From: a bacterium
Lineage (GTDB): Bacteria > Sumerlaeota > Sumerlaeia > MVZB01
NCBI GenBank assembly: GCA_021372575.1
Contig: JAJFUE010000152.1
Coordinates: forward strand, 1,995-65,994
Direction: 5' to 3'
DNA: 64,000 nucleotides
Positions 556-53,987 of this stretch are shown here, piece by piece (within the stretch, counting starts at the first letter, position 1; each line of letters begins with the position of its first letter). The notes under the pieces are model-generated. The model had not been told where the DNA came from, ran no database searches, and was given only the letters and a program-made list of their open reading frames with translations. A program made the translations under genes and the position numbers.

Positions 556-2769
556 CTATTCACAAAACACAGGCTTCACGCCCATTTCGCGCAGCAGGTA
601 GCCGCCGCCATCGACCGCGTCGAGCAGCCATTCCAAATAACGGACATCGGCGTGGATGCCGCGCGTGACGTCGGGCTGGAAGACGAGGTCGCTGCCGACA
701 CCCTCGATGTTGCCGTCGAACACGATGCCGGCGAACTCGCCGGCGGCGTTGAGCGTCGGCGAGCCGGAGTTGCCGTTGGTGATGTCGAGGTCGGTGAGGA
801 AATCGACCGGCACGCCGCCGGCCTTCGCGTCGGCATACGGTCCGAAACGCCGCTCGTTGATCGCCGCAATAAGTTTTTGCGGCGCGTTGTATGGGGCCTC
901 GCCCTTGTTGCGCGCCCATTTTTCGGCCATCTGCCAGACGTTGGTGAACGGGAAACAAACAGGCCTGCCGGCGACCGGGCTGAACCCGCGCACCGTGCCG
1001 AACGTCACGCGAATCGTGCCGTTGGCGTCCGGCGCGATACGGCCGTTGTTGAATTCGCTCAGCGCCTCGAAATATAGCGGCCGCAGGAAAAGCATCGCGC
1101 CCGCCGCGCGCTTGGAACGATCTTCTTCGGCCTTGATGACGGGCAGGGCCTTGAGCGCAAATTGGATCATCGGGTCCTTTGATTTCTTCAGCGCGGCGGT
1201 GTCGGCCGCGCGGATGAGCTTGAGCCGCGTATTCAGGTTGGCGAGCCCGGTCTTGTCGTAAAGCCCGGCGACGCGGGCGTGAATGGCGTCGGCCGTCGCG
1301 GGGCCGGCGCCCATGATGTCGTTGAAAATCGCGGGGCGCTGGTCGGCCGGAAGCTTCGCCGCCTCGCGCAGGAAAAATTCGAACACCGCCTCGTCGATCC
1401 TGCGGTCGTAGTCTTTCTGGTTGCGCTCCTGGGCCTGTTCGATGCGCTGCCAGTCGCGCTGCTGAAGGCCGGGCTCGCGCTCAAGGTCGGGCTTGGGGCG
1501 CTCCTCGGCGAGGCGCGCAATCGTGATCGCCGCCGACAGCAGGCTCGAGCCGCCGATGATGTTGCCGAACGCAAGCCGCGTCTCGCGGCCCTGTTCGTGC
1601 TCCTTGACGATTTCGTCGATTTCCTCCACGACGCCGCCGTATTTTTGTTCGCGCTCCGGCGTGGCCGCGATCCAGTCGATCAGCTTTTTTTCGTCGGCGG
1701 CCTTCTTTTGCTCGAGGCCGCTCGTTCGCGCCGCCTCAAGCATCCCCCCGCGTTTCTTGTTGCGGTTTTCGAGGCCGAACAGCATGCCCGAGGCCTTGAT
1801 CGCAAGCGCTTCGTCGCCATCGACGGTCTTGCGCACGAGGTCAATCTGCCGCTGCGCCTGATCGAGCTGGCGCGGCATTTCCCATCCGACGAACTGGCTC
1901 ATTTCATAGGCGGTCATGAGGCGCATCGTGCGGCCGGGATAACCGATGACCATCGCCAGATCGCCCTCCTGAATGCCTTTTGGGGCGAGGCGGAAATATG
2001 ACTTGGGCTTGTAGGGGACGTTCTTTTTGCTGTAGTCGGCGGGCTTGCCGTCGCGGCCGACGTAAGCGCGCACGAGGCCGAAATCGCCGTCGTGGCGCGG
2101 CCACATCCAGTTGTCGATCTCGCCGCCGAAGAAACCGATCCCTTCGTGCGGCGCCCACACGAGCCGCACGTCGCGCAGCTCGAGCCGCGTGATCAGGTAA
2201 TATTTCGCGCCGCCGTAAAACGTGACGACCTCGCAGCGCGTGCCGGGCGCGGCGGCCTCGGCCTCCTTCACGATTTCCTTCTGGCGCTTCGTGGCGGTCT
2301 TGAAGCGCTCGAGGTCGTCGGCAACATCCTTGAGCCCGCCGAGCACGCGATCGGTGACGTCCGTGACCGCGGTCGTGACAAAAACACGCGCGGTCGGCCC
2401 GCACGGAAGCTCCTCCTTGCGCGATCGCGCCAGATAGCCATCGACGACGAGGTTGCGCCCTTCCTTCGAGTTGTATTGCAGGTAACCGCGCACGCAGTGG
2501 TGATTCGTGATGCACAGGCCATCGGGCGAAACGAACGACGCCGACGCCCCGCCGAGGCTCACGACGGCATTGAGCGGAAAGGCGAGCATGTCGCCGAAGT
2601 TTTGCGGGTCGAACTTGAGGCCCATTTTCCTGAGCGTGTCGGCATGCACATCAGCGATCTGCTGCGGCATCCACATCCCGCCTGGCTGATACGCGAGCTC
2701 CCCGGCGGACGCGGAGACGGCGAGAAAAACAAATCCAACGAGCAGGGCGGCAATTCGGATCGATTTCAT
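556..2769 (-). CDS. Peptidase family S46 dipeptidyl-peptidase (DPP7/DPP11-like), secreted
   Basis: ATG at 2769 gives MKSIRIAALLVGFVFLAVSASA, a signal peptide. GGASASFVSPDGLCITNHHC near the N-terminus and GNSGSP near the C-terminus are S46 hallmarks. The long ORF upstream of this Met is the translated 5' leader. Confidence 0.8.
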   Translation of the reverse strand: MKSIRIAALLVGFVFLAVSASAGELAYQPGGMWMPQQIADVHADTLRKMGLKFDPQNFGDMLAFPLNAVVSLGGASASFVSPDGLCITNHHCVRGYLQYNSKEGRNLVVDGYLARSRKEELPCGPTARVFVTTAVTDVTDRVLGGLKDVADDLERFKTATKRQKEIVKEAEAAAPGTRCEVVTFYGGAKYYLITRLELRDVRLVWAPHEGIGFFGGEIDNWMWPRHDGDFGLVRAYVGRDGKPADYSKKNVPYKPKSYFRLAPKGIQEGDLAMVIGYPGRTMRLMTAYEMSQFVGWEMPRQLDQAQRQIDLVRKTVDGDEALAIKASGMLFGLENRNKKRGGMLEAARTSGLEQKKAADEKKLIDWIAATPEREQKYGGVVEEIDEIVKEHEQGRETRLAFGNIIGGSSLLSAAITIARLAEERPKPDLEREPGLQQRDWQRIEQAQERNQKDYDRRIDEAVFEFFLREAAKLPADQRPAIFNDIMGAGPATADAIHARVAGLYDKTGLANLNTRLKLIRAADTAALKKSKDPMIQFALKALPVIKAEEDRSKRAAGAMLFLRPLYFEALSEFNNGRIAPDANGTIRVTFGTVRGFSPVAGRPVCFPFTNVWQMAEKWARNKGEAPYNAPQKLIAAINERRFGPYADAKAGGVPVDFLTDLDITNGNSGSPTLNAAGEFAGIVFDGNIEGVGSDLVFQPDVTRGIHADVRYLEWLLDAVDGGGYLLREMGVKPVFCE

Positions 2770-2893
2770 TTTCGCAACTCCCAGAATGAGTCGGACGCAA
2801 ACATCACAGGTTTGGCGCAAGAATACTGATTGCGAACGGAATTCCCAATTAGAAAAAGCGGACACAACCAAAGATCCGGAAACAAAATGCAGG

Positions 2894-2935
2894 TCACGAA
2901 ATTCACGAAAGAAGACACGAAAGGCCACGAAAATC
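2894..2935 (-). promoter_or_regulatory. Four direct TTCGTG(A) repeats at roughly 10-12 bp spacing, 125-165 bp upstream of the S46 peptidase start; candidate response-regulator or operator site
   Basis: Plus strand reads tcacgaaattcacgaaagaagacacgaaaggccacgaaaatc. The same TTCGTGAATTTCGTGA core is found upstream of the GH20 gene at 39368-39386. Confidence 0.35.
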
Positions 2936-3322
2936 AAAAACCCAATCTTGTCGCGGAGACGCAGAGTTTGGCAAAGAAGCAGGGTGATCAAAAACGAACA
3001 GGAGGTAACGGAGGAAACGGAGAATGATTTCATAAAATCTCTGTTGCCTCCGTTGCCACCCGTTCAAAAATTTCCTGTTCATACGGGTGGAGCACCGCCT
3101 GACGCGTGAAATGATAATCGAGAAGATTGAAAAAAGGAATTCCCATAGCACCCCTTATGGCCCTTAGGAAACTTAATCTGAAAAAAGTGAAAATTTAGAA
3201 CGGAATCCCCACGGCGGCAAACTTGCGGAAATACAATAAGTCAAACGGCCCTGATATTTCGGGTTCCACGCAAGGATCATGAATTGTTAACGCAATTCCC
3301 AATTGGAATTATAATCAGAAAT

Positions 3323-5233
3323 TTAATAGCCGGTTCCCGACATCCTGTTGCTTCTGTCCGGGATCATTTTGATGTCGAGCGTGACGGTGGTTTCGTCGGG
3401 TTTGACGAGGCGCGATTCAAACGTTTTGTAGCCGGGCGCGATGAACTTATAACGGCGCAGGCTGTCGTCGAGGATGCGGTGCCGGAAGACGCCGCCCATG
3501 CGGTCGATGAGAGGCCCATGCGCGTAAGCCCAGGCCAGGTCACCGGAATTATCGTTATGAATTTCGGCGATGTTGACCTGAAAGGAATCGATCGGCTTGC
3601 CGGTTTGCGCGTCGGTGACGCTGGCCGTGACGTCCGTGTAAGGCTCGAGCGTAAACGTGTGCGTCACTTCGTTGGAAGCCTTGATCGCGACGTGCCTCGA
3701 CCGGTAGCCGGGCAGCATGATCCAATATTTTGTCTCGCGATCGGTGATTGAATCGCGGACCAGATAACCATTCTGATCCGTCTTGGCCCGGTCGCGGAAT
3801 TTGTCTCCGTCCGGGAACCGCATGAAATGAGAGATCGGCGGGTTGCCCGGCGAATCCACCGTGTCCGCAACGCCGACCTCGGCATTCGCAATGCCGCGTC
3901 CCTGCTGATCGACGACGCGAATGCGAAGCGTGTGGCCCGGTGACATTCTGAACTCAACCGGCGGATTGCCGGCGCGGATGCTCTTGAGCCACTGGAACGA
4001 CGGGGCAAAACCTTTCGCATATGCCGTCATGTAGATTTCGTGTTCGGTTTCGACCGCGTGCGCAAATCGAAACTCGCCCCTGGCGTCCGTCCTGAAGCCG
4101 GCAAAGCCGGGGAGCATGACCTGCGCGTTTTCAATCGGCGCGCCGGATTCATCGATAACATGCCCCTTGAGCTCGACGCCTGTTTTGACGACACATTGAG
4201 CATTCTGCGCCAGCAGCTCCGATTCCGTCGGCATGGCGTGGCCGAAAGCATAATCGGGGTGAGCGGCCGCGAGGCCGTCGAGATGATACCAGCGCGGGAA
4301 CTCGTCGAAATGCCAGCGGCCATCCGCGCCGGTCTCGGCGTAAAACGTGCCGCCGCCTTTCACCGCGTTTTCACCCGCGCGCGCGTCTTCGCCGCGGATG
4401 TAAAGCCGAACCTTCGCGCCGCTGACGGGCTCGTCTTTTTCGTTCACCACGCGACCGCCGATCCTGACGCCGCGATTCATCTTCACGGTGAACCGGCTGG
4501 GAATTGGATCTTCTCCAAACGTATTGCGCCACTCGCCGTCCATCTGAACATGGCCGGCGGCATGAACTTCGAACGAAAACCGATAATTCCCGGGCGGCAA
4601 AACGAGCCGGTATTTTCCGTTGCCGATGTGGGCGGCGGGCCGTTGGTCCCAATCGGCGTAGGCCTTGAATTCGGCGTTCGTGATCGGCTTGCCGGTGGAC
4701 GCATCGATCACCTCAATCGTCATCGTGCGCGTGGTGCTGTTTTCGATCGGGCTCGCGACGGGAGCCGGCGTGTTGGAGATCCGTTTTTCAGGCGGCGGCT
4801 TGCGCGCGGTTGTTTGTGTGGTCGTGGCGGTCACCGGGCTCGGGAACAGCTCGATGTTTTCGATCTGCGAGCGATTCAGACTGAAGGCCACTAAGCCGCG
4901 CTGGTGCACGCGGACCACTTCGCCCTTGACCCACGCCTCGCAGTCCTGAATGACGTGCCCGTTCTTTAGGTGGATCGTGACGCGGCCGATTTTGTGGACG
5001 GCATCTTTTTCGGGGGCTTTCTCGAGCGCTTGGAAAAGCGCTTCGTCCGGCTGGTCTGGTGGCTCGCCGACAATCGTCGCGGCGCCGGCAGTCGATACCG
5101 AAATAATCAATGCGACGAAGGTGAATACCGCGGTCAAGCGCTTCACGGCCCCATCCCCTTTCGGCGACAAGAAACGTGCCCGCCGCTGTTGCCGGTTACC
5201 AGATGATATAGTCCGGAATCGGCGAATTGCCAA
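3323..5233 (-). CDS. Secreted hypothetical protein with repeated beta-sandwich (carboxypeptidase-regulatory-like) modules
   Basis: 636-aa ORF. Hydrophobic signal-like segment VKRLTAVFTFVALIISVSTAGA (possible GTG start near 5146). Repeated 'D(A/V)xTGKPI' modules typical of CarboxypepD_reg-like domains. Confidence 0.5.
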   Translation of the reverse strand: MAIRRFRTISSGNRQQRRARFLSPKGDGAVKRLTAVFTFVALIISVSTAGAATIVGEPPDQPDEALFQALEKAPEKDAVHKIGRVTIHLKNGHVIQDCEAWVKGEVVRVHQRGLVAFSLNRSQIENIELFPSPVTATTTQTTARKPPPEKRISNTPAPVASPIENSTTRTMTIEVIDASTGKPITNAEFKAYADWDQRPAAHIGNGKYRLVLPPGNYRFSFEVHAAGHVQMDGEWRNTFGEDPIPSRFTVKMNRGVRIGGRVVNEKDEPVSGAKVRLYIRGEDARAGENAVKGGGTFYAETGADGRWHFDEFPRWYHLDGLAAAHPDYAFGHAMPTESELLAQNAQCVVKTGVELKGHVIDESGAPIENAQVMLPGFAGFRTDARGEFRFAHAVETEHEIYMTAYAKGFAPSFQWLKSIRAGNPPVEFRMSPGHTLRIRVVDQQGRGIANAEVGVADTVDSPGNPPISHFMRFPDGDKFRDRAKTDQNGYLVRDSITDRETKYWIMLPGYRSRHVAIKASNEVTHTFTLEPYTDVTASVTDAQTGKPIDSFQVNIAEIHNDNSGDLAWAYAHGPLIDRMGGVFRHRILDDSLRRYKFIAPGYKTFESRLVKPDETTVTLDIKMIPDRSNRMSGTGY

Positions 5234-5973: not shown

Positions 5974-6241
5974 CTGACCGCTTTTCGCCTCGATGGATCA
6001 TGGCGCAGCGCATGGAGCCCGTGCGCACGGATTCCAACCATGATACGCGTTGCGATTGAACCTGTCAGCAGTTCGCTGAGGCACTGGACCAGCAAATGGA
6101 TGTCTTCCGCCGCCGGGTAGTCGAATCGCTGAACGAAGCCATCGTAAAGGCCCACAAACCAATGCAGGAACCGAAGATTTTGGATATTTTTGAACCGGAG
6201 AAGGCGGTGGCTGTAGAAACGGGGCCTGCTGGCTGACCAGC

Positions 6242-6282
6242 AAAAACCCCAAGTCGTCTAAAATCAGCGACTTGGGGTTTTT
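6242..6282. terminator. Bidirectional rho-independent terminator immediately outside the tRNA-Lys 3' fragment
   Basis: aaaaaCCCCAAGTCG-tctaaaatcag-CGACTTGGGGttttt: a perfect 10-bp stem flanked by A5 and T5. Confidence 0.7.
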
Positions 6283-6288
6283 GAAACT

Positions 6289-6333
6289 TGGTAGGTCATG
6301 TAGGACTCGAACCTACAACCAACAGATTAAGAG
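6289..6333 (-). repeat. Partial tRNA-Lys copy (anticodon loop through the 3' end, about 45 nt); att-like direct repeat marking the distal end of the island
   Basis: The reverse complement reads CTCTTAATCTGTTGGTTGTAGGTTCGAGTCCTACATGACCTACCA. This is near-identical to the 3' half of the intact tRNA at 10316-10391. Confidence 0.8.
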
Positions 6334-6473
6334 CGCCCCGCCGCAACTCATAAAGTATAGATAAATCATAAATGCGCGAAAGCCAAGCGTGGGTTTTGTG
6401 TGGGTTCTTGATTTTCGGCGGACTCATGTTGCTCGGCTTCCCCTGATTTGGATTGTCATGCAACCCGAACCCT

Positions 6474-6899
6474 TTACCATAGACGCGCGCCGTTCCCACT
6501 CTTTTTGCCCAAGCTTGCACCAAATACCTGCAAAGTTCTTTGATGCAAGTACCGCTGAACATAAGAATTGATCGTGCCATCGGGGTATAAAATACGGCTT
6601 GCAATTAATGCATCCAATGCTTTTCCGGTGCGTGATCCCGCTCCGGGAATTCTCGCCAGAAGGTCGTCACGCGAATACGTGACTTTAGACCAAAGCCAAG
6701 CCCATCGGGCTTCATCGCCGGTTGCCTTGCATGTTTTTGGATTTCCCACACGCTTTATTTCCACGCCTGCCCAACACAAAATAATTCGAATAAGCGCGGC
6801 GTTGCCGACAACCATGAGGACTGATTCAGGTTGTTCGCCACTTTTGAACTGCTCAAGAATGCGATCGAATACAGGTTGTCTCACGATGTCCTCTTTCAT
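6474..6899 (-). CDS. Hypothetical protein (island cargo)
   Basis: ORF of 141-146 aa. The start at 6899 overlaps the upstream stop by 4 nt (ATGA-type coupling). No recognisable motifs. Confidence 0.4.
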   Translation of the reverse strand: MKEDIVRQPVFDRILEQFKSGEQPESVLMVVGNAALIRIILCWAGVEIKRVGNPKTCKATGDEARWAWLWSKVTYSRDDLLARIPGAGSRTGKALDALIASRILYPDGTINSYVQRYLHQRTLQVFGASLGKKSGNGARLW

Positions 6900-8080
6900 A
6901 ACACGCAATTGCATTGGCCGATATTCTGACTCACTCCAACATCTTTCCAGACTTCGACTGTTTCAAGACAAAGAGCAACGTGGAGATCACGCCGAAAACT
7001 TTTTGCGGCGGCGATGAGATGGCGATAAATCTCGACCCTTTTCTGATGTGAATACCGGATTCGTCCATCGCCAGTCGCTCTTTCGTGGAGATGGGCGGCA
7101 ATCGTATTATCTTTTCCAAGAAATTCGTTCATCAGCCTCATGGCGCGCTGATACATGCAGATTCCGCCGAACGTCAGACGATCAAGAGGAACTTCCTTGA
7201 TCAGGTCCCTGAGAAAATCGTGATATAGATCACGCCATCCGTCCTGAAGGATGACGGGCATGATTACGGCACGAACTGGGTAGCCTCGATCGGAACACTT
7301 TTTCATCGCTACAATTCGTCTCTCAACGGAAGGAACGTTGGTCTCGTGTCGGTTGGCGATCCCAGGTGGATTCAGGCTCCAGGACAGGATGGTATGTCCG
7401 TTATGATCGAGGTCGATGTATCGCTCGATTCGATCGGACTTTGTCAAGATGGTTTGCCGCGCATATGGATGACCGGCGAAATAAGGAACCAAAACGGTTG
7501 AATAGGCGGTTAACGGATCCAGCGCGATACCGTCTTGCAGCTTGCCTGAATAAAATGCAGTCGGTCGATTGAAACCACCGGCTACACGATCAATCCTTTC
7601 GATGATTTCGGGTAGATTGACAAAGATTTTAACCGTGGGTAAAAACCATACGCCCTGCGTGCCAGCAAGGTAACAATACCGGCATCCATACGGACAAAAT
7701 CCATAGACAGAAAAATGCCAGTAGTTCGGGCACGCGTTGTTTTCCTCCTCGCTAAACCTTACCGAGTCGTTTAATTCTCCAAAGACGAGTGTACGCTTAC
7801 CTTCATGGTGAAGTTCGGAAGGCGATTTCGAATTGAGTTCGATTTTATTGTGCGGCACATCCATTCGATCGATGATTTGGGCGGAAGGATACAAACCACA
7901 GATGCGCTCGACAAAACGTTTGCGAGCGGCGGTCGCCACGCTGCCCTTGCTCAGAACGATCGTCTTCACATCGAATTCATGAATTGATTGCGGAGTATAG
8001 TCCATGGGCAAACCCCAGGGCTTACCGTTGGAATCGGCTTCCGGATCGCAGCCGGGATGAAATAAATCCATTTGTCCCAT
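6896..8080 (-). CDS. Spore photoproduct lyase (SplB)-family radical SAM protein (COG1533 DNA-repair photolyase-like)
   Basis: CPYGCRYCYLAGTQG (CxxxCxxC) followed by ...TVKIFVNLPEII... aligns with B. subtilis SplB CMGHCHYCYLQ...YIRTYVNVEEIL. GYPVRAVIMPVILQDGWRDLYHDFLRDL matches SplB GYPLGFIVAPIYIHEGWEEGYRHLFEKL. Start taken at ATG 8080; the ORF is open to 8188. Confidence 0.7.
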   Translation of the reverse strand: MGQMDLFHPGCDPEADSNGKPWGLPMDYTPQSIHEFDVKTIVLSKGSVATAARKRFVERICGLYPSAQIIDRMDVPHNKIELNSKSPSELHHEGKRTLVFGELNDSVRFSEEENNACPNYWHFSVYGFCPYGCRYCYLAGTQGVWFLPTVKIFVNLPEIIERIDRVAGGFNRPTAFYSGKLQDGIALDPLTAYSTVLVPYFAGHPYARQTILTKSDRIERYIDLDHNGHTILSWSLNPPGIANRHETNVPSVERRIVAMKKCSDRGYPVRAVIMPVILQDGWRDLYHDFLRDLIKEVPLDRLTFGGICMYQRAMRLMNEFLGKDNTIAAHLHERATGDGRIRYSHQKRVEIYRHLIAAAKSFRRDLHVALCLETVEVWKDVGVSQNIGQCNCVL

Positions 8081-8090
8081 GTCAATACCT

Positions 8091-8903
8091 TCAACTGCGC
8101 TTCGTGGTTCGTGTGCGCTGTGCGCGCTTTCCGGTAAGAATCTCCCATCTACGCGCGATCGTATCACAATATGCCGGTTGCTTTTCAATCAGGATGGCCG
8201 TTCGGCCGGTTTTCTCTGCAGCAATCAATGTGGTTCCGGAACCGCCGAACGGATCGATCACGATTCCCTCGGAATCGGAATATGCAAGCAGGGTGCGATA
8301 CGGAATTTCCACAGGGCAGACGGCCGGGTGACCATAATCCTTTATTTGATTTGATACGGCCGGAATCTGCCAGATATCCGAATTGAACTGCCACATGTAT
8401 TTGGCACCATCGGAACTCATTTTCTTCATTTTGCCTGGCTTCTTGTAAATAAGCAGCGCCTCCCATTGAGAAGCCGGGAGATATAATTGGTTCCGTACGA
8501 TATGGGTGCATCTGGGAATCTGGTAATTAGGGCCGGTCTTAGCCCAAATAATCATGTCTTGGAACTGAAAACCGGCTTCTTCCAGTATTGAACAATGATG
8601 TGCGACATGGGCATGTTTTGTTGAATAGCCGTTGGCTATGTTCCATGCAACGATGCCGCCTTTATCGAGGACGGCGTGACAATTCCCTGCGATCTTCCGC
8701 ATATCAGTGAGGTAGTCGTCATACCTGCCCCAATGTGAATACTTCCTCTGATTAAAATATGGCGGACCGGCGAAAACATGACCAACGGGAATGCCGTCGA
8801 TCGCCTTTTTAAACGTTGACTGAAGACAAGAATCTCCGCATAGAACTCGATGTCGCCCAAGAATCAGAACGTCACCCGGTTTTGTTTTGGCATTACTTGG
8901 CAC
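8091..8903 (-). CDS. DNA methyltransferase, N6-adenine/N4-cytosine family (beta-class, N6_N4_Mtase)
   Basis: RHRVLCGDS near the N-terminus, GPPY (DPPY-like motif IV) and DPFGGSGTT (motif I, FxGxG) near the C-terminus. This is the circularly permuted order typical of beta-class MTases. Confidence 0.75.
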   Translation of the reverse strand: MPSNAKTKPGDVLILGRHRVLCGDSCLQSTFKKAIDGIPVGHVFAGPPYFNQRKYSHWGRYDDYLTDMRKIAGNCHAVLDKGGIVAWNIANGYSTKHAHVAHHCSILEEAGFQFQDMIIWAKTGPNYQIPRCTHIVRNQLYLPASQWEALLIYKKPGKMKKMSSDGAKYMWQFNSDIWQIPAVSNQIKDYGHPAVCPVEIPYRTLLAYSDSEGIVIDPFGGSGTTLIAAEKTGRTAILIEKQPAYCDTIARRWEILTGKRAQRTRTTKRS

Positions 8904-9325
8904 AGGTATCGATTTATTTTCCTCATGCCAGTCGTCTTGCAGTAAGCGGCGTAACTCTTGCCCACGAAACCAAGCGTCTTGAGATCAAAATCTTCATCCC
9001 GTAATTGCTTGAGGATGTGCTTCAACTTGCCAGAATCCCACTCAGCCAGCTCGCCTGTTTTATTTTCAGCGATTGCAAACGCTTTTTTGTCTTTTTCTGA
9101 CAGGGACAAAATAATCGCCGGGATATTCTTCAAGCCCAACCGACGAGCAGCTTTCAGGCGGGTATGACCTGCTCTAAGTCGGCTATCCCTGTCGCATAGG
9201 ACAGGGACATTGAACCCAAATCGCTCTATACTCTTCTCGACGGCTCCTACCGCTTGGTCATTCTTCCGTGGATTTTCAGCCCATTCTTTGATCCGGCTTA
9301 CCGGGAGTTGAACGACTTGCATCAT
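8864..9325 (-). CDS. ParB N-terminal (ParB/Srx nuclease-like) domain protein
   Basis: ...ENPRKND...GHTRLKAARRLGLKNIPAII... is a ParB-N fold signature. Its 3' end overlaps the MTase start by 40 nt in another frame. Confidence 0.6.
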   Translation of the reverse strand: MMQVVQLPVSRIKEWAENPRKNDQAVGAVEKSIERFGFNVPVLCDRDSRLRAGHTRLKAARRLGLKNIPAIILSLSEKDKKAFAIAENKTGELAEWDSGKLKHILKQLRDEDFDLKTLGFVGKSYAAYCKTTGMRKINRYLCQVMPKQNRVTF

Positions 9326-9627
9326 GTTCTGTCACCTCGGCGATTTTGTTTGGCAATGGCGAGAACTGCCAAACTCGCACGAGCGTCCCACAGATTTAGA
9401 AAAAAAAACAATTCCCTTACCGACCCTTATGAAACTTAACGACCCTTAATCTTTAGTTTTTTTCATTTTTTTGAGTGGAATATGGGCGCGCAAATACATG
9501 ATGCAGAGGTCTAATTACTAGCGATGCTCAGCTTTAAGCGGCCTAGGATCTTGCGTCGTTTTGGAGATGGCTCATGGATACAGTGTCTGGGCTCACATAT
9601 CAAGACCAAGCTGAATCTTCAAACTGA

Positions 9628-9662
9628 GTGGTGGGTCATGAAGGACTCAAACCTACGACCAA
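9628..9662 (-). repeat. Degenerate partial tRNA-Lys 3' copy (T-arm plus acceptor); internal att-like repeat between tandem elements
   Basis: tggtgggtcatgaaggactcaaacctacgaccaa is similar to the tRNA 3' end. The preceding 12 nt (ttcaaactgagtgg) also match the flank of the intact tRNA. Confidence 0.6.
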
Positions 9663-9951
9663 ATGCCCCGCCGAAACACGGCGAGTATACAACAAACCAT
9701 TATTGTGCAAATGCGAAGCGCGGGTTTTGTGTCGGTTTCTGATTTTCGGCAGACTCATGTTGTTCGGCTTTGGGCTGCTGAAATGGCCCGGTCAGATCAT
9801 GAAGATGCTGAGCCATTCGTGCGATCTCTGTCAGCCTTTCTTTGCTCGCATGGTCGTAATGACGACTGAGAACGGATTCCCGAAATGAAAGACCCCGATG
9901 GACCGTTTGTCCATCGGGGCACTTCCGATCTGATCGAGAGATGACAACTTA

Positions 9952-10123
9952 TCCCGCTATTGCGGGAAACTGGCCGCCAGTGCGGTCAAGCCCTGCGGCA
10001 ACTACTCCGCCCGCTAATGCGGGCAACGATCGTCAGCACGATCCGCATCATCATGCGCGAGCTCTTGAGGCTCTGAAAGTTATTCCGCTTCTTCATCTGA
10101 CCAATCCCGCCGACGCGGGAAAC
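9952..10123. repeat. Three copies of the hairpin motif (T)CCCGC-N4-GCGGG-(A/C)AAC in the remnant element next to the tRNA
   Basis: tcccgctattgcgggaaac (9952-9970), gcccgctaatgcgggcaac (9009-style spacing, 10009-10027), tcccgccgacgcgggaaac (10105-10123). Spacings are 57 and 96 nt. Confidence 0.5.
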
Positions 10124-10315
10124 TTCGCTCGCCTATCCGTCCAGGGACGATCACCACTGATGGACCAAATGCAGGTTTTGTGCAAGTGTCTCACCCACAT
10201 CGCAGCCATATCGCAGGCCTATCACAGTTTTTTGGGTCCGTTTTGGATTGAATCAAGCAGGCATAGAAAAAGCCCTAAACCAAGTAGATCGAATGGCTTA
10301 GGGCTTCAAACTGAG

Positions 10316-10391
10316 TGGTGGGTCATGTAGGACTCGAACCTACAACCAACAGATTAAGAGTCTGCTGCTCTACCAATTGAGCTAATGACCC
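10316..10391 (-). tRNA. tRNA-Lys (anticodon CTT), 76 nt including the encoded CCA
   Basis: The reverse complement GGGTCATTAGCTCAATTGGTAGAGCAGCAGACTCTTAATCTGTTGGTTGTAGGTTCGAGTCCTACATGACCCACCA folds as a cloverleaf. Anticodon loop CTCTTAA. Confidence 0.9.
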
Positions 10392-10590
10392 GATCGAGGC
10401 GGCCGCGGGGCCGGCTCCAATCGCCTCACCCCATGGCTTTCCATATCTTTCCCATTCCCGGCGAAGGTTTCAAGTACGAATTTCAGAAAAAATGCGTCCG
10501 GGACGCGCGTTGTGGTTGCCAGCGGCCTTCGGGTCAGGTAAATTTATCGCCGAGCGTTGCCGGGAGGGGATTTCCACAAATTGGGTCCCA

Positions 10591-11766
10591 ATGGCTTTTG
10601 ATTACGTCCTCATTGACACCAACGAGCAGATGCTCCAGCTTCTGGATGCGGTTTCCGGCGATGATTCCGTAGGCATCGACACCGAAGCCGATAGTCTTCA
10701 TCACTACCGCGAAAAGCTCTGCCTCATTCAGATATGCGCCGGTGGCCAGCAGTGGATCATCGACCCGCTCGTGGGCGGCCTGACGATGGCGCCGCTCATG
10801 GACCTGTTGGCCGGCCGCGAGCTCGTCTTGCACGGCGCCGACTACGACCTGCGCCTGCTGTGGCGCACGTACGGGTTCCGCCCGTCGCGCATTTTCGACA
10901 CAATGATCGCCGCGCAACTGTTGGGGTGGCCGCAATACGGGCTTGCCGCGTCGGTGCAGCGCGTCGTCGGCATTGAGCTCTCCAAGCACGGCCAGCGCGC
11001 CGACTGGTCGCGGCGGCCGCTGACCGAAAAGCTTCTGTGCTACGCCGCCTGCGACACGCGCTACCTGCGGCCGCTCATCGAGCGCCAGCGCGAGGAGCTC
11101 ACCCGGCTGGGCCGCCTCGACTGGCATCGCGATTCCTGCCGGCGCGTCATGGCCGGCGCGTGCAGCGAGCAGACCGCCGACCAGCGCGAGGCCTGGCGCC
11201 TCAAGGGCGGCCGGCACCTGCGCGGCCGCGCCGCCGCCATCATGCGCGAGCTGTGGCGCTGGCGCGAGGACACGGCCCGCCGCCTCGACCGCCCGCCGTT
11301 CAAGATTCTCGGCAGCGAATACATCCTGGAGTGGGCGACGTACGTCGCCGATCATCCCGACGCGACGGTCCAGGACGGGCCCGAGCCGCCCCGCGGCCTG
11401 CACGAGGGACGCCTCGCCAGTTTCCAGCGCGCGCTCGAAAAGGCCCTCAACATGCCGCCCGGGCTGTGGCCCGGTGAGCCGCACCTGGACCAGTGCCGCC
11501 GTTGTCGCCGGGTGCCGGAAGACCTGCTGCGCCGCGTCCTGACGGTGCGCGATGGGCTCGCCCGCGAACTCGGCATCGAGCCCGGGATCCTGGCCTCGCG
11601 CGAGGCGCTGAACCATCTCCTCCTCAAACATATCGAAGGCTACTCCAATGAGCGCCGCCCCGAAGGCCCCGGCCTCATGAAGTGGCAACACGACCTGCTT
11701 GCCCCGCACCTCGCCCCGATTTTCGAGGAACAATTCCAGGAACTCCCGCCGGCGCCCGATCAGTAA
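10591..11766 (+). CDS. rnd: Ribonuclease D (DEDDy 3'-5' exonuclease plus HRDC domain)
   Basis: MAFDYVLIDT...VGIDTEADSLHHYREKLCLIQI...YAACDTRYL are the Exo motifs I-III. C-terminal HRDC-like segment. Start moved to ATG 10591. Confidence 0.75.
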   Translation: MAFDYVLIDTNEQMLQLLDAVSGDDSVGIDTEADSLHHYREKLCLIQICAGGQQWIIDPLVGGLTMAPLMDLLAGRELVLHGADYDLRLLWRTYGFRPSRIFDTMIAAQLLGWPQYGLAASVQRVVGIELSKHGQRADWSRRPLTEKLLCYAACDTRYLRPLIERQREELTRLGRLDWHRDSCRRVMAGACSEQTADQREAWRLKGGRHLRGRAAAIMRELWRWREDTARRLDRPPFKILGSEYILEWATYVADHPDATVQDGPEPPRGLHEGRLASFQRALEKALNMPPGLWPGEPHLDQCRRCRRVPEDLLRRVLTVRDGLARELGIEPGILASREALNHLLLKHIEGYSNERRPEGPGLMKWQHDLLAPHLAPIFEEQFQELPPAPDQ

Positions 11767-12114
11767 TTCGTTCCTCAACTATACCCAATGACAAAAGTTT
11801 TTCGTCAATGAGCCGTGCGATCGAGCAACGCTTTCGGATTGGACGCGAACCGAGGCCCGAAGGGCCGGGGGTGAGCGCAGCGAACCCCCGGGTGCGGTTG
11901 CAAAAATGATCCGAGCCCCGACAGGGGCGGCAGAAAAACGTTCGCTTTCTGTCGCCGCCTTCGGGGCTCGGGCATATGGCGGCGTTCTACCGGGGGCTCG
12001 CTACGCTCGCGCCCCGGCTACAGCCTGCCGGCCCTTCGGGCCTCGCATCACTCCGGGTTCATTCTGATAAAACTTTTCTCACTCGCTCGCCGTTCCTATA
12101 GGTCCTATGTGCGC

Positions 12115-13527
12115 TTACTTGTATTCCCACTTGCGCACGTCGATGAAGTGGCCGGTCACGGCGGCGGCGACGGCCATGGCGGGGCTCACGAGGTGCGTGC
12201 GGCCGTCCTTGCCCTGGCGGCCTTCGAAGTTGCGGTTGCTGGTGGCCGCGCAACGGTCGCCGGGGTTCAGGCGGTCCTCGTTCATCGCGAGGCACATCGA
12301 GCAGCCCGACTCGCGCCACTCGAAGCCGGCCTCCTTGAAGATCCTGTCCAGGCCCTCGGACTCGGCCTGACGCTTGACCGCCTGGCTGCCGGGCACGACG
12401 AGCGCCTGCTCGATCGCGGGATGCACCTTGTGGCCCTTGGCGACGGCGGCGGCCGCGCGCAGGTCCTCGATGCGCCCGTTCGTACACGAGCCGATATAGA
12501 CCTTGTTGATCTTGATCCCGGTGATCGGCGTTCCCTCGTCGAGGCCCATGTAGGCCAGCGCCTTCTGCGCCGCGAGCCGGTCGTTGGGGTCGGCCAGTTC
12601 GTTGATCACCGGCGTCTGGCCGCTGATCCCGGTCACCATGCCCGGGCTCGTGCCCCACGTCACCTGCGGCTCGATCTCGCCGGCCTTGATGACGACCTCG
12701 TTGTCCCACGTGCAGTCGTGGTCGCTGGCGAACGAGTGCCACTTCTCGACGAGCTTCTCGAAATCCTGGCCGGCCAGGTACTTGCGGCCGCGCAGGTAGT
12801 CGAACGTCGTCTGGTCGGGCGAGATGAGGCCCGCGCGCGCTCCGGCCTCGATCGCCATGTTGCAGACGGTCATGCGGCCTTCCATCGAGAGGTCGCGGAT
12901 CGCCTCGCCGGTGAACTCGATGGCCTGGCCGGTTCCGCCAGCGGTGCCGATCTTGCCGATGATCGCCAGGATCAGGTCCTTGGCCGTGATGCCCGCGCCG
13001 AGCTTGCCTTCGACATGAATGCGCAGCGTCGGCGACTTCTTCTGGATCAGGGTCTGCGTGGCGAGGACGTGCTCGACTTCGCTCGTGCCGATGCCGAAGG
13101 CCAGCGCGCCGAAGGCGCCGTGCGTGGCCGTGTGGCTGTCGCCGCAGACGATCGTCATGCCGGGCTGCGTGAGGCCCAGTTCGGGCCCGATCACGTGGAC
13201 GATGCCGCCGAGCGGATTGTCCATGCCGAAGCAGGTCACGCCGAATTCCTTGCAGTTGGCCTCGAGGGTCGCGACCTGCTTGCGACTCATCGGGTCGCGG
13301 ATCGGTAGGTTGCGCGCCGTGGTTGGAATATTGTGGTCCATGGTCGCGAACGTAAGGCCCGGCCGGCGGACCTTGCGGCCGGCGAGGCGCAGGCCTTCGA
13401 AGGCCTGCGGGCTGGTCACTTCGTGGACGTAGTGCCGGTCGATATAGATCAGCGGGTCTTTCCCGTCTTCCTCGTGGACGACATGCGCGTCCCAGATCTT
13501 CTCGTAGATGTTCCTGCCCATGATCAC
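12115..13527 (-). CDS. leuC: 3-isopropylmalate dehydratase large subunit
   Basis: Aconitase-family motifs (VCGDSHT, GSCTNGR, Cys ligands CSMC). Confidence 0.9.
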
Positions 13528-13777
13528 TGCTCCCAGGCGCGAAATAAAATCAATCGGATCATATCAGACCGCCCCGCCCGCGTCCATTGTCAGTTCGTGC
13601 TCGTGCTTGCAATCCAAACCTGGCATAGCCAGAACCAACTGCCCCAGCCATTACCGAGTCATCGTAATCGAATCCCTTTCGTCCGCCCATCCCTCGCTCA
13701 CGCTCGGGCTAGATTGACAAAAATTTTCCGGCAATGCGCCAATCGAGATGGTTCCAAGTTTGGCGATTCGATGATGG

Positions 13778-13818
13778 GTTCGATTACGATTACGATTACG
13801 AGCACGAGCACGAACGGA
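13778..13818 (+). repeat. Hexamer-tandem dispersed repeat, copy 1: GGTTCGATTAC(GATTAC)2(GAGCAC)2GAACGG
   Basis: Direct reading of the sequence; member of a 7-copy family (see findings). Confidence 0.85.
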
Positions 13819-13873
13819 CAACTGTCGGCAAGCGCTCTACTGCACCATTCACCATCAACCATTCACCCTTCCC

Positions 13874-16800
13874 CTACAGCGGCTTGATTTCCGGATTCTC
13901 CGTCGTGCCCTTGACCTGCGCGCGAATCACCTTGCCGACCAGTTGGTTGATCACCTCGACCGCGGTGCCGAGGAGCGGCACGCCCTCCACAATCTGGAAC
14001 ACCTGCGCCGCGATCTGCAGGTCGAGCGTCTTGTCGAACCCGACCGACCCGCTGAGCTTCAGGTTGATGATCGGATTGTCGAACACCATCGCCGTGCTGT
14101 GGACGCGGTTGTTCTCGATCGTGACCGGCCCGTGAACGGTCGAGAACGAAATGTCCTCGAGCAGCGGCAGCTTGAGCAGCCCGCCCAGGCTGTGCAAGAT
14201 CGCGTTCGACACCAGCCGGCTTTGCTTGATCGTCACCTGCCCCTGTCCGTTCACCTGGTCCTTCACGCGGAAATCTTTTTTAACCTCGAGCCGGCCGGTC
14301 ACGACGCCGGAGAAAATGCCGCCCGGCTTTTGTTTTTTGCTCAGCGCCTCGGAGAGTGGCCGCAGCTCGACGTCGCGCGTCTCGAACGATGCCTCGAGCC
14401 GCCGGCTATAGACCGACCCGCTGAGGTCCGCCTTGCCGCCATAGACCGACGCCTGCGACAGGTACCAGCGCACCATCGCCGGCAGCCCGCGGAAATCATC
14501 CACCGTCAGGATGCCGTCGATGTCGCCACATTCGATCCCCTTGCACGAACCCGTCCGTGTCTTGAACGTGCCGCGAATGCTGAACGACGGCTTGAGGTTC
14601 GGGTTATACGGCTTGTCCGCCGGAGGCACCAATTCGGGCAGGTTTTTCGGCCGCCTGGCGTTCCATTGCCCGAGCCACGGCGTGAGGTCGAAGTGCTCGC
14701 CGGTCACGCCGAAGTTCAGCGTCCCTTCCGGGTTCGGCGGCATCGTCCACGTGATCTCGAGCGACGACTTCACGTTGCGCGAGCCGATGGGCGTCACCGC
14801 CAGCGGCTCGGGCGACCACAGCCGCCCCTGGTTGTAATACACCATCCCCGTGATTCCCTTGAGCGGCGTCGGCATGCGCCAGAACGTCATCTCGCCGTCG
14901 CGCATCCGGATGATCCCGTCGAAGTCCCAGCGCCAGTCCGCCACCAGTTGCGGCACCATGTGCGCCTCGTCGTGCAGGCCCGTGAAGTAATCGGCGAGCG
15001 CCGGCCAGCTCGTCGGCGCCTTGAATCCGGGTCGCGGCTCGATTTTCTGGTGATGCTCGATCGTCGCCGCGCCGGCGACCGTGAACAGCTCGAGCCCCGG
15101 CGGCGACCGCCGCTGCATCTCGGGCAGCTCGCCGTCGAGCTTCAGGTTGACCAGCCCGCCGCCCGGCTTGAGCACGCCTTCGGCCGAGACATCGACGCCG
15201 CCGAACTTGCCGCTTGCCGGCTCGATGCGCAGCTCGTCGCCCTTCAGCTCGAGCCCGAGGCGCTTGAATCGCAGCGGCCCGTTCACGCGCGCAATCGTGA
15301 AGCTCGTGCTGAAATCATCGACGTCGATCCGGCCGCCGGTCTCGAGCTTGCGCCAGTCCGCCAGCGGGCCGGCGACGCTCACCCTGGCCACCGCATTGCC
15401 GCCGAAATCGCTGAACCCGAACCGCCGCGGATTGGCCCCGTAGCGATGCGCCTGCGCCAACGCGTTCGCCAGCGACGTGGCCGCCTCGATCTTCAGGTCG
15501 GCGCGCGGATTCACCCACGGCTCCGGTTTGCCGCTCAGCGTGCCGTCGATCGTCACGCGCCCGCCGAGTGTTTCGCCCGCCAGCTTCTCGAAGCGCAGTG
15601 TCCCGTTCGACCAGCCGATCCGCCCGCCGACGCCGCTGACCTGCGGCAGCTTCCCTCCGCGCATGCTGCCTTTATTCACCGACAGTTGCGCGGTGACATC
15701 GGGGCGCGTCCCGTTCTTTTTTATTGTACCGCGCCCTTCGAAGTCGCCGTGGATCACGAGCGGCCCCTCGACGCGCGCCAGCGCGAGCGTCGTCGCGAAA
15801 TCCTTGAGGTTCACCGAGGCCTGGACCGGCCGCGACCGCCAGTCGGCCAGCGGCGCGTTTTTCATCTGGATCTCGAACATGCCCGACCCGGCGACCGGCG
15901 GCAGCGGCTCGATTGGGCGCCCCGTCGCCGCCGCGAGCTCCATGACCTGGTCGGCGATCGCCGGGAGCTCACCGCCGATCCGCGCATCGACCGTGAGCGT
16001 CGGCGACGACCACAGCAGCCGCTTCCCCGCCATCGATCCGCTCAGCGAAAGCGCCGTCGAGCCCATGCGCCCTTCGATCCGCCCGGCGCGCGCCTCGTTC
16101 GGCGCGAGGTCGATCCGGCCGTTGATTCCCGTCACCGGCGCCGGCAGCCGCGCGTCGCGCAGGGTCACGTCGCGGAAGCGAAGCCCGCCGTTGATCTCCG
16201 CGCGCGCCAGCGACGCCACGATCCCTTCGCGGGTTGGCTCGGCCAGCGTCAGCGTGCCGCTCCCGTTCAGGTCGCCCGTGAACGTCGGCCCGGCCACGAT
16301 CGGCCCGTCCGGCTTGGCGGTCCCGCCGGTTTTCCAGTTCACCCTCAGGCCCTCGACCGAGCGCGGCAGCGTTCCCGTGGCGACACCGTCGATCTCGATC
16401 GGCAGTCCGCCGTAGCGGCACGCGAGCCGCTCGACGCGCAGCGTCCCGGTCGTCATCTGCACGCGCCCGGAGATCGCGCGCACCGGCAGCGGCAACTTCG
16501 CCGACGCCACGTCGATCCCCCACGCCTGCCCGTTCAGTTCAATCACGTCCGGCGCGAGCAGGATCGATTCGCCCGCCGCCCGCCCGGAAACCTCGATTTT
16601 TTCAAGCCCCGTCGGGATCAGTTCCATGCCGTATCCGGGCAGCACGTGGTCGGCGATCAGTTCCACGTCGCCCATGCCGGCCGTGAACCGCTGCGCGCGC
16701 AAATCGTACGGCCACGGCGACTGCGTCCCGGCCCATCCCGCCAGCCCGATCGAGGACAGCGGCGTGCTGACGACGAGCCTGTCGATCTGCACGCGCCGGC

Positions 16801-51997: not shown

Positions 51998-52072
51998 TTA
52001 CGCACCGGAGCGCCGATCTCCGAATCGTCAATTTGGTTTTTTGCAGCAATTGCATTTGCCACTACGCCAGTA

Positions 52073-52870
52073 TTGATGAGAGGTGGTCCGCAAAAAATGT
52101 TGGCAAACAAAATGCCTTGTTTTTGGCGAGCAGCGGTGATCCCGTTGGCGTTATTATGTTGTCAGGCATGCACTGTCAGCGTTTGGAAATATGGCCTCCG
52201 CAAAGAATACCACCTAAAGGGAATTGAAGGTATTTCGCCAAACGATTTGGGGAAACCGGATTTTTCCGGATACCTGTTGGTATCATATGGCAATGGCACC
52301 GGCAGCTCGAACTTGTTTTATGAGAAATATTTTTGCGCTATTCCCATCATCGACGGAAGGGTTCAGGATCCGTTTGATTACAAAGGCTCGCAAACCGGCC
52401 TGAAATGCATTGCGAATGATGTATCCCCTGAGCGTTTGAACAGAATTCGAAAATACAGTTTTGACGCGGAATCAATAAATCTGGCGTCAAAATTATATTA
52501 TGAGAAAAAATATATTCCGAACGACCGCTACCATAACCCGCAATTTGGATCCGGCTACTCTGTCTCTGATGGCGTGAGTTTGATCCCGTATCATCCGAAT
52601 ACAATGGAGTTTGCGGATCCGGAGAAAAATTCGAGGGTTCACTGGCGTCCGGGCAAGAATCCATTGGAGCCTCCGTTCGATGTGACATGTCGCGTCATTA
52701 TTCTGCCTAGCACACAACCTGTTTCTAAGCCGGAGCGGGTTCGAAATGTATTTGGAGCAGTGATTGAAACTCCATTCACGATTGTTGCTGATCTGTCCAC
52801 GTTTCTGTTGTTTTGCATTTTCGACCCCAAGAACGCGTTATCGTATTGGGGCGATGAGGCTGGATTTTAA
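52073..52870 (+). CDS. Hypothetical exported protein or lipoprotein; AT-rich, likely horizontally acquired
   Basis: Signal-like ...AAVIPLALLCCQAC. GC about 35-45% against a roughly 67% background. Confidence 0.45.
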   Translation: MMRGGPQKMLANKMPCFWRAAVIPLALLCCQACTVSVWKYGLRKEYHLKGIEGISPNDLGKPDFSGYLLVSYGNGTGSSNLFYEKYFCAIPIIDGRVQDPFDYKGSQTGLKCIANDVSPERLNRIRKYSFDAESINLASKLYYEKKYIPNDRYHNPQFGSGYSVSDGVSLIPYHPNTMEFADPEKNSRVHWRPGKNPLEPPFDVTCRVIILPSTQPVSKPERVRNVFGAVIETPFTIVADLSTFLLFCIFDPKNALSYWGDEAGF

Positions 52871-52965
52871 GTAGCGTTTTTTGTCGCAGGCGAGCAGGAT
52901 CGGGCAGAATCAGGTCTTATAGGTCCCACTCAACTAAAACACCGGGAGAAACGTCATTAAACCTC

Positions 52966-53715
52966 TCACTTCATATACACCCTGCCCTGGTCGTCCATGC
53001 CGATGCTTGTGCCGTTGCCTAGATCGAGCGTCTTGGTGATCTGGTCCGGCGGCGGATCGAACGTGAACACTGCGCCTTCGTTGGCCGCTTTTTCCAAATA
53101 AACGAGTAGGCGGTCCGCCTTGGCCAGCGCGGTCGCGCACACGTCCGGCTTGCAGTTCAGCGTCGATTTCGACACCAGCAACGTGAACGGCCACGTGATG
53201 AGGTTGAAGAGCCTCTGCTTGATGCCCGGCCGGTGTTTGCCTTGCTCGACTTCGTTGAGATATTCGAGGCTCTTTTGCAGGCAGTATTTCAACATCTTGA
53301 AGATCATCAGGTATTCGCCGGCATCGCATCGCCGGCTGATCTCGGAATTGTGGAAGATGAATCGCGAGACGAAGATGCGGATCCCGTGATCGAAGTCCTT
53401 GGGATTGGCCGTCCAGCCGTGACCCTTGCCCGACAGCGCCTTCACCCACTCGCCGCTCTTCGCGCACAGCTCGCAGTAGGACAGGAAGTAGCCGTTCATT
53501 TCCGCGCTGTCGGCGGCGGTGGTGCTGGTGAGCTTCTTGAGTTTCTCGAGGATCGGCTTTGCGCGTTCGTCGGTGATTTTGTAGGTCCAGTTCATGGCGT
53601 AGCTGATACCCCACGCGAACTCGAAAAACTCCGGCGGCGTGAACAGCGTTTCGAGCAGCTTGTCCGGCCCCGGCTTGGCCGCGGAGAAGATCTTCAGATT
53701 CGGACCCGTCGCCAT
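52966..53715 (-). CDS. Hypothetical protein; AT-rich, likely horizontally acquired
   Basis: 249-aa ORF with no recognisable motifs. Convergent with the previous gene. Confidence 0.45.
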   Translation of the reverse strand: MATGPNLKIFSAAKPGPDKLLETLFTPPEFFEFAWGISYAMNWTYKITDERAKPILEKLKKLTSTTAADSAEMNGYFLSYCELCAKSGEWVKALSGKGHGWTANPKDFDHGIRIFVSRFIFHNSEISRRCDAGEYLMIFKMLKYCLQKSLEYLNEVEQGKHRPGIKQRLFNLITWPFTLLVSKSTLNCKPDVCATALAKADRLLVYLEKAANEGAVFTFDPPPDQITKTLDLGNGTSIGMDDQGRVYMK

Positions 53716-53987
53716 GGGAACCTCCCGAAAGAAAATCCGTTTGTTTTGACTAACACATTAGCTTGCCGAATTCGAGAATATTAGGCAGCCTGATATCTCA
53801 CCGTCGATTTCGACTATGGAATTTTTGATTTTCATTTGACTGCCTGGCAGCCTTGGCGTCTTGGCGTAAAAGAATTTCTCTTCTGTGAGGTCTCCGCCTC
53901 TCGGCGTCTCTGCGATAAAAATCCCGGAGTCGGCTCGGAGAGCCGACCTACCTTGACTCTTTTTCGCGAATCGCCAAGTATGTCTGC

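Follow-up and report, generated by a model that had tools for sequence, protein, structure and literature searches.

What might an enzyme that resembles the repair enzyme of bacterial spores do in bacteria that are not endospore formers? The question is raised by a gene of a Sumerlaeota bacterium (GenBank assembly GCA_021372575.1), found in a 64,000-nt stretch of contig JAJFUE010000152.1 (positions 1,995 to 65,994; this whole stretch is called the window below). The gene encodes a radical S-adenosylmethionine (SAM) protein related to spore photoproduct lyase (SPL). The operon of this gene also encodes a DNA methyltransferase and a small protein, and is located on an island at a tRNA-Lys gene. 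To our knowledge, no radical SAM DNA repair enzyme other than SPL has a known substrate, and we know of no lesion assigned to many of the SPL-like genes of non-sporulating bacteria. The reading tentatively favoured here, somewhat short of even confidence, is that the protein might be a DNA-damage-induced, DNA-directed SPL-fold radical SAM lyase for a lesion other than the classical spore photoproduct.

The likeness to SPL is real and far beyond chance, as the preliminary description of this DNA had proposed from the sequence. The protein matched the Pfam SPL family PF20903 with an E-value of 2.4e-27 (96.2 bits, gathering score 27). It also matched the Geobacillus SPL of the PDB, with E-values of 1.7e-19 for the single sequence and 2.5e-32 for the family profile, at an identity to SPL of about 20-25%. 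Among the NCBIfam profiles, the nearest curated family is true SPL. The SplB equivalog model TIGR04070 gave 128.2 bits (cut-off 400) and TIGR03886 gave 56.4 bits (cut-off 437.6); the models for Rv2578c (NF038135) and PA0069 (NF033668) gave no match at E<0.01. One relative carries the NCBI label 'SPL family radical SAM protein'. An AlphaFold model, for which 37 family members served as input, reached a predicted local distance difference test score of 88.9. Foldseek aligned this model to the SPL structures 4K9R/4FHC with template modelling scores of 0.72/0.83, a root-mean-square deviation of 3.4 Å over 348 columns, and an E-value of about 1e-24. The next PDB match (1e-6) was about 18 orders of magnitude weaker. 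Judged from the predicted model, SPL is the only close structural relative. In the comparison with SplB and other COG1533 members, membership of the SPL superfamily was thus upheld, but the cut-off of the SplB equivalog was not reached. The TIGR04070 result, 128 bits against a cut-off of 400, confirms that this is no SplB orthologue.

The residue roles described for the SPL of Geobacillus thermodenitrificans (Gt), including radical transfer by Y96/Y98 (PMC3467042), were transferred by HMMER alignments onto a family alignment of the 37 members. The comparison showed that the radical-initiation machinery is kept. The CX3CX2C cluster motif (C129-P-Y-G-C133-R-Y-C136) is invariant and aligns to C90/C94/C97 of SPL. 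It is flanked at its third cysteine by the invariant Y135 and Y137, the counterparts of Gt Y96/Y98. The SAM ligands K174 and S195 of Gt SPL are retained as K214 and S235. A DGRxRY hairpin motif is also conserved across the family, and it may be equivalent to the R304/Y305 β-hairpin of SPL. The residues that handle the lesion are different. The hydrogen donor C140 of the Gt enzyme (C141 in Bacillus subtilis) is replaced by an invariant Lys180 within an FYxGKLQD motif. Hence, of the two features that the preliminary description had named as diagnostic, the tyrosine chain is present and the fourth cysteine of SplB is absent. The position of Gt S76, where the clostridial enzymes have their donor (Cys77), is occupied by Glu; an invariant Cys117 lies three residues further in the same loop, and may act as a clostridial-type hydrogen donor. 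Two contacts to the spore photoproduct are altered, with R193 replaced by Ser (S233) and E268 by Gly (G305). The phosphate contact R273 aligns to a gap without a counterpart, and K309 is not alignable.

The family also contains five invariant cysteines that are not found in SPL (C117, C308, C371, C390, and C392). The last two are located in an extra C-terminal tail of about 25 residues, ending in GQCNCVL, which SPL does not have. Because they are placed at strand ends and on the tail, C308, C371, C390, and C392 probably hold a putative second metal site. We conclude that the enzyme has the fold and the radical-initiation machinery of SPL, that it probably acts on DNA, and that its substrate pocket is different. 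Since the pocket residues by which SPL reads the spore photoproduct are replaced, the lesion is probably not the classical 5-thyminyl-5,6-dihydrothymine.

The radical SAM family is large, with more than 1800 clusters at 90% identity. Its members have about 390 residues and share 50-62% identity across phyla. They were detected in 251 of 185,579 GTDB species, nearly all of them metagenome-assembled genomes (MAGs). The hosts, none of them endospore formers, belong mostly to the Chloroflexota/Dehalococcoidia and the Planctomycetota, and otherwise to the Hydrogenedentota and a few other phyla. Among the 2.9 million contigs of IMG/VR there was one match. The isolate phages of INPHARED and the plasmids of PLSDB contained no family member, only distant SPL relatives with 24-31% identity. 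A phage or plasmid gene was considered on these grounds and rejected. Most of the loci are chromosomal, and the earlier view of the gene as specifically mobile-element or phage cargo does not apply to the family.

Gene neighbourhoods were compared in 84 loci, collected by tblastn and clustering of open reading frames (ORFs); 64 of these loci have both flanks. A three-gene cassette, composed of a ParB-methyltransferase, the radical SAM enzyme, and a protein of about 135 residues, recurs in about 30% of the loci and in several phyla. The linkage to ParB and methyltransferase, on which the preliminary description had placed weight, is therefore kept outside the window. In the well-flanked loci, the ParB-type methyltransferase is a neighbour in 20 of 64 and the small protein in 23. 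The two occur jointly in 19 loci, the small protein without the methyltransferase in 4, and the methyltransferase without the small protein in 1. Other recurrent neighbours in the same 64 loci are a TudS-like desulfidase (PF04463; 14 loci, and 14-16 in all), a second, shorter SPL-like radical SAM protein (11 loci), and a divergently transcribed class-I methyltransferase in a synteny typical of Chloroflexota (10 loci); 17 loci have no recurrent partner. In the full set of 84, an Eco57I/PglX-like N6 methyltransferase is located directly downstream of the radical SAM gene in six Planctomycetota loci, and pairs of ParB_N and PAPS-reductase-like genes were found in three. No DNA methyltransferase adjoins the gene in about 60% of the loci. 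The three genes form a genuine unit, but this cassette is not universal, and the enzyme evidently also works alone.

Several loci carry longer gene sets. In L005 (5056-9173), genes for a radical SAM protein (324 aa), a short SPL-like radical SAM protein (303 aa), a DUF1848 protein (316 aa), and the family member are consecutive. In L001, L011, and L073 a further radical SAM gene is present, together with a protein of about 540-590 residues that has no Pfam domain. These sets look like larger nucleic-acid repair or modification clusters.

The element GAAC-N4-GTTC is the LexA operator of Gram-positive bacteria, and it is reportedly also the operator of Dehalococcoides. It was searched for with at most one mismatch, from -100 to +10 relative to the start codon of the first operon gene. 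In the Chloroflexota loci, the box was present at 17 of 27 operon starts, whereas the remaining gene starts of these loci had it in 6 of 153 cases (Fisher p 2e-12). Several of the six control boxes are not independent, as they belong to a divergent neighbour sharing the intergenic region or, in one case, to a split ParB part of the cassette. Several of the Chloroflexota boxes are perfect (e.g. GAACATATGTTC-like sites). The box precedes the radical SAM gene where this gene stands alone, and precedes the ParB-methyltransferase gene in the cassette loci. A bona fide lexA gene (TIGR00498, 154 bits, cut-off 111) is located directly upstream in L001, a complete Hydrogenedentota chromosome with the order lexA, ParB-methyltransferase, TudS, radical SAM, and small gene. 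In L011 and L030, too, the radical SAM gene has a LexA-like gene as a neighbour. SOS (LexA) regulation of COG1533 SplB-like genes has been reported from several non-sporulating phyla (PMC8565304). The occurrence of an SPL-like gene in a non-sporulator, noted in the preliminary description, was thus already known and is not surprising. Moreover, genes of the TudS-DUF1722 type (RudS) partner photolyase in light/UV operons (PMC11417400).

Other upstream elements were also searched for. The E. coli-type box CTGT-N8-ACAG showed no enrichment upstream in the loci. An exhaustive scan for palindromes with 4-nt arms outside Chloroflexota had AAAT-N8-ATTT as its sole outcome. This element, in the form GCA(G/A)AAAT(A/T)TCTTGAAATTT, precedes the radical SAM start by about 118-138 nt in seven Planctomycetota loci, mostly Pirellulales, and in one Actinomycetota-binned locus (L056, L063, L064, L066, L067, L070, L072, and L074). 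It probably reflects clade-specific promoter conservation, and could also be an operator. In four Chloroflexota loci (L022, L042, L062, and L019), the radical SAM gene has its intergenic region in common with a divergent class-I SAM methyltransferase gene (about 306 aa, Methyltransf_25/Rsm22-like). Several such shared regions carry a second LexA-type box, and the divergent methyltransferase and the radical SAM gene may therefore both be SOS-controlled.

The genes of the window operon are transcribed from the minus strand in the order ParB, methyltransferase, radical SAM, and small ORF. The preliminary description was right that the radical SAM gene is co-oriented with the other two; it lies downstream of them, not upstream, and starts 10 nt past the methyltransferase stop codon. 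Likewise, both the ParB and the methyltransferase domains are present as described, but they belong to one fused gene in the relatives. In L001, L002, and L086 a single gene of 402-413 codons encodes both, and a 1-nt deletion between 8957 and 8958, relative to L086, splits it in the window. Comparable splits were seen in L030, L033, and L058. All of these splits, that of the window included, may be pseudogenes, functional two-gene variants, or MAG assembly errors. Motif IV of the β-class amino-methyltransferases is (D/N/S)PPY. In all 14 of the full-length cassette ParB-methyltransferases examined, including that of L086 (6559-7794), it is GPPY, at a position that aligns with SPPY of Thermus TTHA0409 (PDB 2ZIE); the window motif is at 8700-8760. 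This substitution suggests that the target atom or the chemistry of the enzyme may be atypical. A known defence or restriction-modification system was considered for the operon and rejected, as PADLOC recognised the methyltransferase only (Type II).

The methyltransferase can be lost while the rest of the cassette is kept. L004 and L087 have lost ParB together with the 5' half of the methyltransferase by deletion, and their radical SAM and small genes are intact. In comparisons with relatives, the radical SAM gene has a ratio of non-synonymous to synonymous substitution rates (dN/dS) of 0.09-0.17. Its maintenance in spite of frameshift or deletion of the methyltransferase implies that it has a function of its own. 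The small gene has a similar ratio (0.10-0.19). Its ATG and the radical SAM stop codon overlap in the sequence ATGA, an arrangement suggestive of translational coupling. The small protein is all-helical. A profile search placed it in a family of at least 1523 clusters, about 131-146 residues in length and all unannotated, with no fusions among the best 120 relatives. It has no match in Pfam, NCBIfam, or PHROG, and no significant match among the PDB folds (best E-value 0.68, with weak MarR-like rows).

The location of these genes on an island, also claimed in the preliminary description, is well supported. The window has a GC content of about 63%, with a trough of about 49% at about 6000-10500, and all plausible genes inside this trough are on the minus strand. 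As listed in the table, the tract is bounded by 45-nt repeats of the tRNA-Lys 3' end. Such repeats with a displaced terminator are the typical mark of an element that integrated into a tRNA gene at its 3' end. Only a short 3'-end remnant of a tyrosine integrase is left; the rest of the integrase is absent from the window island. The duplicated segment of the attachment (att) site next to this remnant suggests tandem integration or rearrangement of related elements.

Table. Features of the tRNA-Lys island, in window coordinates
Feature	Position	Strand	Remarks
SPL-fold radical SAM gene	6896-8080	-	Intact ORF; ATG at 8080, stop 6896-6898; 394 aa
ParB_N-N6/N4 DNA methyltransferase	8091-9325	-	Two ORFs: ParB 8864-9325, methyltransferase 8091-8903
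Small protein	6474-6899	-	141 aa from MKEDIV; 146 aa if the start is at 6914 (6474-6914)
tRNA-Lys(CTT)	10316-10391	-	Its 3' 45 nt (10316-10360) form the proximal att repeat
Distal att repeat	6289-6333	.	45-nt copy of the tRNA-Lys 3' end, 98% identical
Displaced tRNA terminator hairpin	6241-6283		Adjoins the distal att repeat
Tyrosine integrase 3'-end remnant, ~100 nt	9781-9878	-	82.7% identical to L086 6081-6178
Degenerate internal copy of 6289-6439 (att and adjacent ~100 nt)	9629-9770	.	~71-83% identity

A less decayed form of the island was found in L086, a close relative on a Logan contig, whose DNA is 91.5% identical over 6499-9472 of the window. In L086, phage-like genes are followed by a 427-aa tyrosine integrase, a fused 411-aa ParB-methyltransferase, the radical SAM gene, the small gene, an att site of 45 nt identical to the window repeat, and a Cas9 locus. 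This Cas9-Cas1-Cas2 locus (9886-14276) begins about 230 nt past the att site. The window copy is a decayed, immobile remnant, in which the radical SAM and small genes are still maintained. Against L086, the synonymous divergence of the window cassette amounts to 0.07 in the radical SAM gene and 0.38 in the small gene, but reaches 0.6-0.8 in its ParB and methyltransferase parts. This contrast within one cassette indicates that the element is a mosaic, and implies recent recombination.

A few other features of the window were noted. Upstream of the ParB start, at a distance of about 90-120 nt, two 14-nt direct repeats (CTTACCGACCCTTA / CTTAACGACCCTTA), 19 nt apart from start to start, occupy 9416-9448; they may form a regulator-binding site or an integrase arm-type site. 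A second low-GC patch (about 51%) at 52000-53800, just past dnaJ, contains two hypothetical ORFs (52073-52870, plus strand, 265 aa; 52966-53715, minus strand, 249 aa) and may be another acquired segment. The region 2600-3400 is AT-rich (43-51% GC); an S46 peptidase gene (556-3033) starts and a gene with CarboxypepD_reg repeats (3323-5233) ends around it. An RNA resembling the nhaA-I riboswitch (Rfam RF03057, 47.8 bits, gathering score 37) lies at 56435-56488 on the plus strand, downstream of an ORF for a PMT_2-type glycosyltransferase.

The enzyme is alone in many genomes, persists without the methyltransferase, and has relatives with SOS signatures; an autonomous, repair-type function is inferred from these observations. 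In the mechanism that might be proposed for such a lyase, the enzyme would bind duplex DNA and flip out a damaged base or dinucleotide by means of the retained β-hairpin (DGRxRY). The [4Fe-4S] cluster on CX3CX2C would cleave SAM, and the 5'-deoxyadenosyl radical would take a hydrogen atom from the lesion, with bond scission as the next step. The substrate radical might then be quenched through Cys117, in the loop of the clostridial donor cysteine, and the Tyr135/Tyr137 pair, while cysteines 308, 371, 390, and 392 would probably hold the second metal site. The window operon is cargo of a decayed tRNA-Lys integrative element that has lost its integrase and whose methyltransferase is frameshifted; purifying selection still acts on its radical SAM and small genes. 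The preliminary description had suggested that the substrate in a mobile context could differ from the spore photoproduct, for example through processing of element DNA. A different substrate agrees with the changes at C140 (Lys), R193 (Ser), and E268 (Gly) and with the missing R273. The processing of element DNA does not find support, as the relatives point to an SOS role.

Several points weigh against a damage-induced lyase. SOS control would equally fit the induction genes of a prophage or element. The linkage to two unrelated types of DNA adenine/cytosine methyltransferase (ParB-N6_N4 in about 20-25 loci, Eco57I-like in 6) is not explained by plain repair. Many of the hosts are anaerobes from sediment or groundwater, settings with little likelihood of UV lesions. 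Moreover, the assignment of the boxes to LexA takes a Gram-positive-type box to be valid for the LexA of Chloroflexota. No Cheo-type box was found upstream of the window operon, and this box type may not be that of the host.

The methyltransferase linkage would be accounted for if the enzyme modified DNA together with the methyltransferase and the small protein. It would then install or elaborate a base modification, for instance on the methylated base, that protects element or host DNA or has an epigenetic role. This is the principal rival of the lyase reading and one to be taken seriously, although on the whole rather unlikely. The operon linkage with its 10-nt gap, the joint occurrence of both partners in 19 of 64 loci, the unrelated Eco57I/PglX-like methyltransferase directly downstream in six Planctomycetota loci, and the three ParB_N and PAPS-reductase-like pairs all agree with it. 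The same is true of the invariant, unusual GPPY motif and of the L086 cassette, which occupies a typical cargo position between the integrase and the att site of a prophage-like element. A precedent for a DNA-modifying SPL fold also exists in phage M6 gp53 (PMC8989533). However, purifying selection has kept the radical SAM gene intact in loci with a frameshifted or deleted methyltransferase, and about 60% of the loci have no adjacent DNA methyltransferase. Similarity to M6 gp53 is not detectable and its pathway genes are absent from the neighbourhood, the family is nearly absent from viral collections, and the LexA-type boxes and lexA adjacency fit repair better. A horizontally spreading SOS module of anaerobes, in which methyltransferase and radical SAM enzyme act on the same base, is also conceivable but unlikely. 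Such a module could perform an oxygen-independent dealkylation of the AlkB type, with hydrogen abstraction from an N-methyl group and the four-cysteine site as electron sink, and thereby clear aberrant methylation. It could also convert a methylated base into a new DNA modification upon damage. Either version, if true, would be a DNA chemistry undescribed for radical SAM enzymes.

It is quite improbable that the enzyme is a genuine SPL, repairing 5-thyminyl-5,6-dihydrothymine in dry, frozen, or A-form DNA of non-sporulators with a clostridial-type upstream cysteine as donor. The full-length fold, the cysteine triad, the tyrosine pair, the SAM ligands, and the Arg/Tyr hairpin are all conserved, and C117 lies three residues past the Gt S76/clostridial Cys77 position. 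Against this stand the TIGR04070 score of 128 bits versus 400, the identity of about 20-25%, the replacement of C140, R193, and E268 with the missing counterpart of R273, the five extra invariant cysteines, and hosts that are not endospore formers. The TudS-like gene, which adjoins in 14-16 loci, leads to another proposal. TudS/RudS act on thiouracil nucleotides and on 4-thiouridine in tRNA (PMC11417400), and the radical SAM enzyme might therefore act on RNA or another non-DNA substrate, for example by reversing near-UV 4-thiouridine cross-links in tRNA. We consider this very improbable, because TudS is missing from the window cassette, DNA methyltransferases that carry a ParB DNA-binding domain are the most frequent partners, and the closest fold is that of a DNA repair enzyme. 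The paired methyltransferases, typed as Type II by PADLOC, and the position of the island next to a tRNA gene and, in L086, next to Cas9 would fit a defence role. In this role the radical SAM enzyme would be the toxic 'restriction' arm, inflicting radical damage on unmethylated incoming DNA. Such an arm is hardly credible: PADLOC has no match for the radical SAM or small protein, and a nuclease, helicase, or ATPase partner is missing. In genomes with a frameshifted, deleted, or missing methyltransferase the radical SAM gene is also intact, and would there be self-toxic.

The window protein can be compared with several known systems. It shares with SplB (TIGR04070; 4FHC, G. thermodenitrificans) the full-length fold, CX3CX2C, the tyrosine pair, the SAM-binding Lys/Ser, the Arg/Tyr hairpin, and presumably DNA as the substrate. 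It differs by Lys for C140, Ser for R193, Gly for E268, the CNC tail, and the five extra cysteines. Its distribution (Chloroflexota, Planctomycetota, Hydrogenedentota, and others) and its frequent operon with a DNA methyltransferase are also different. The SOS-regulated COG1533 genes, which include Rv2578c and PA0069 (PMC8565304), likewise belong to the SPL superfamily, have a LexA link, and are stand-alone chromosomal genes in many genomes. However, the models of the Rv2578c and PA0069 families do not match the window protein, and a cassette with ParB-methyltransferase and small protein was not found described for them. Phage M6 gp53 is an SPL-like radical SAM isomerase in thymidine hypermodification (PMC8989533). 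It acts on DNA bases in a mobile genetic element, and is thus a case of the fold recruited for DNA modification. A search of the phage database detected no gp53-like similarity, and the M6 partners (5-hydroxymethyldeoxyuridine kinase, aGPT-Pplase, and a pyridoxal phosphate enzyme) are absent from the neighbourhoods examined. The fusions of ParB and N6/N4 methyltransferase in phages and prophages (PHROG 498; PADLOC MTase_II PDLC03229) have the architecture of the upstream gene of the cassette, which is integrase-adjacent in L086. The cassette enzymes differ in having GPPY instead of (D/N/S)PPY, and are followed by the radical SAM and small genes.

Literature searches on SPL with ParB and methyltransferase, and on radical SAM with ParB and LexA, returned nothing relevant. 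SPL-superfamily genes in non-sporulators and their SOS regulation are already known. Three features are not described in the literature searched: the remodelled active site and extra cysteine motif of this clade, the cassette that joins it to a ParB-GPPY methyltransferase and a new family of small proteins, and the carriage of the clade on a tRNA-Lys element. The cassette and the damage-response link are more surprising than an SPL on a mobile element in a non-sporulator.

In summary, this large conserved clade, with its remodelled active site, extra cysteine motif, set of operon partners, and damage-response signature, offers handles on the lesion question for SPL-like enzymes. Identification of its substrate could reveal a light- and oxygen-independent direct-reversal repair in anaerobes such as Dehalococcoidia and Planctomycetota. 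Alternatively, it could uncover a DNA modification of a new kind, which a methyltransferase and a radical enzyme produce together.

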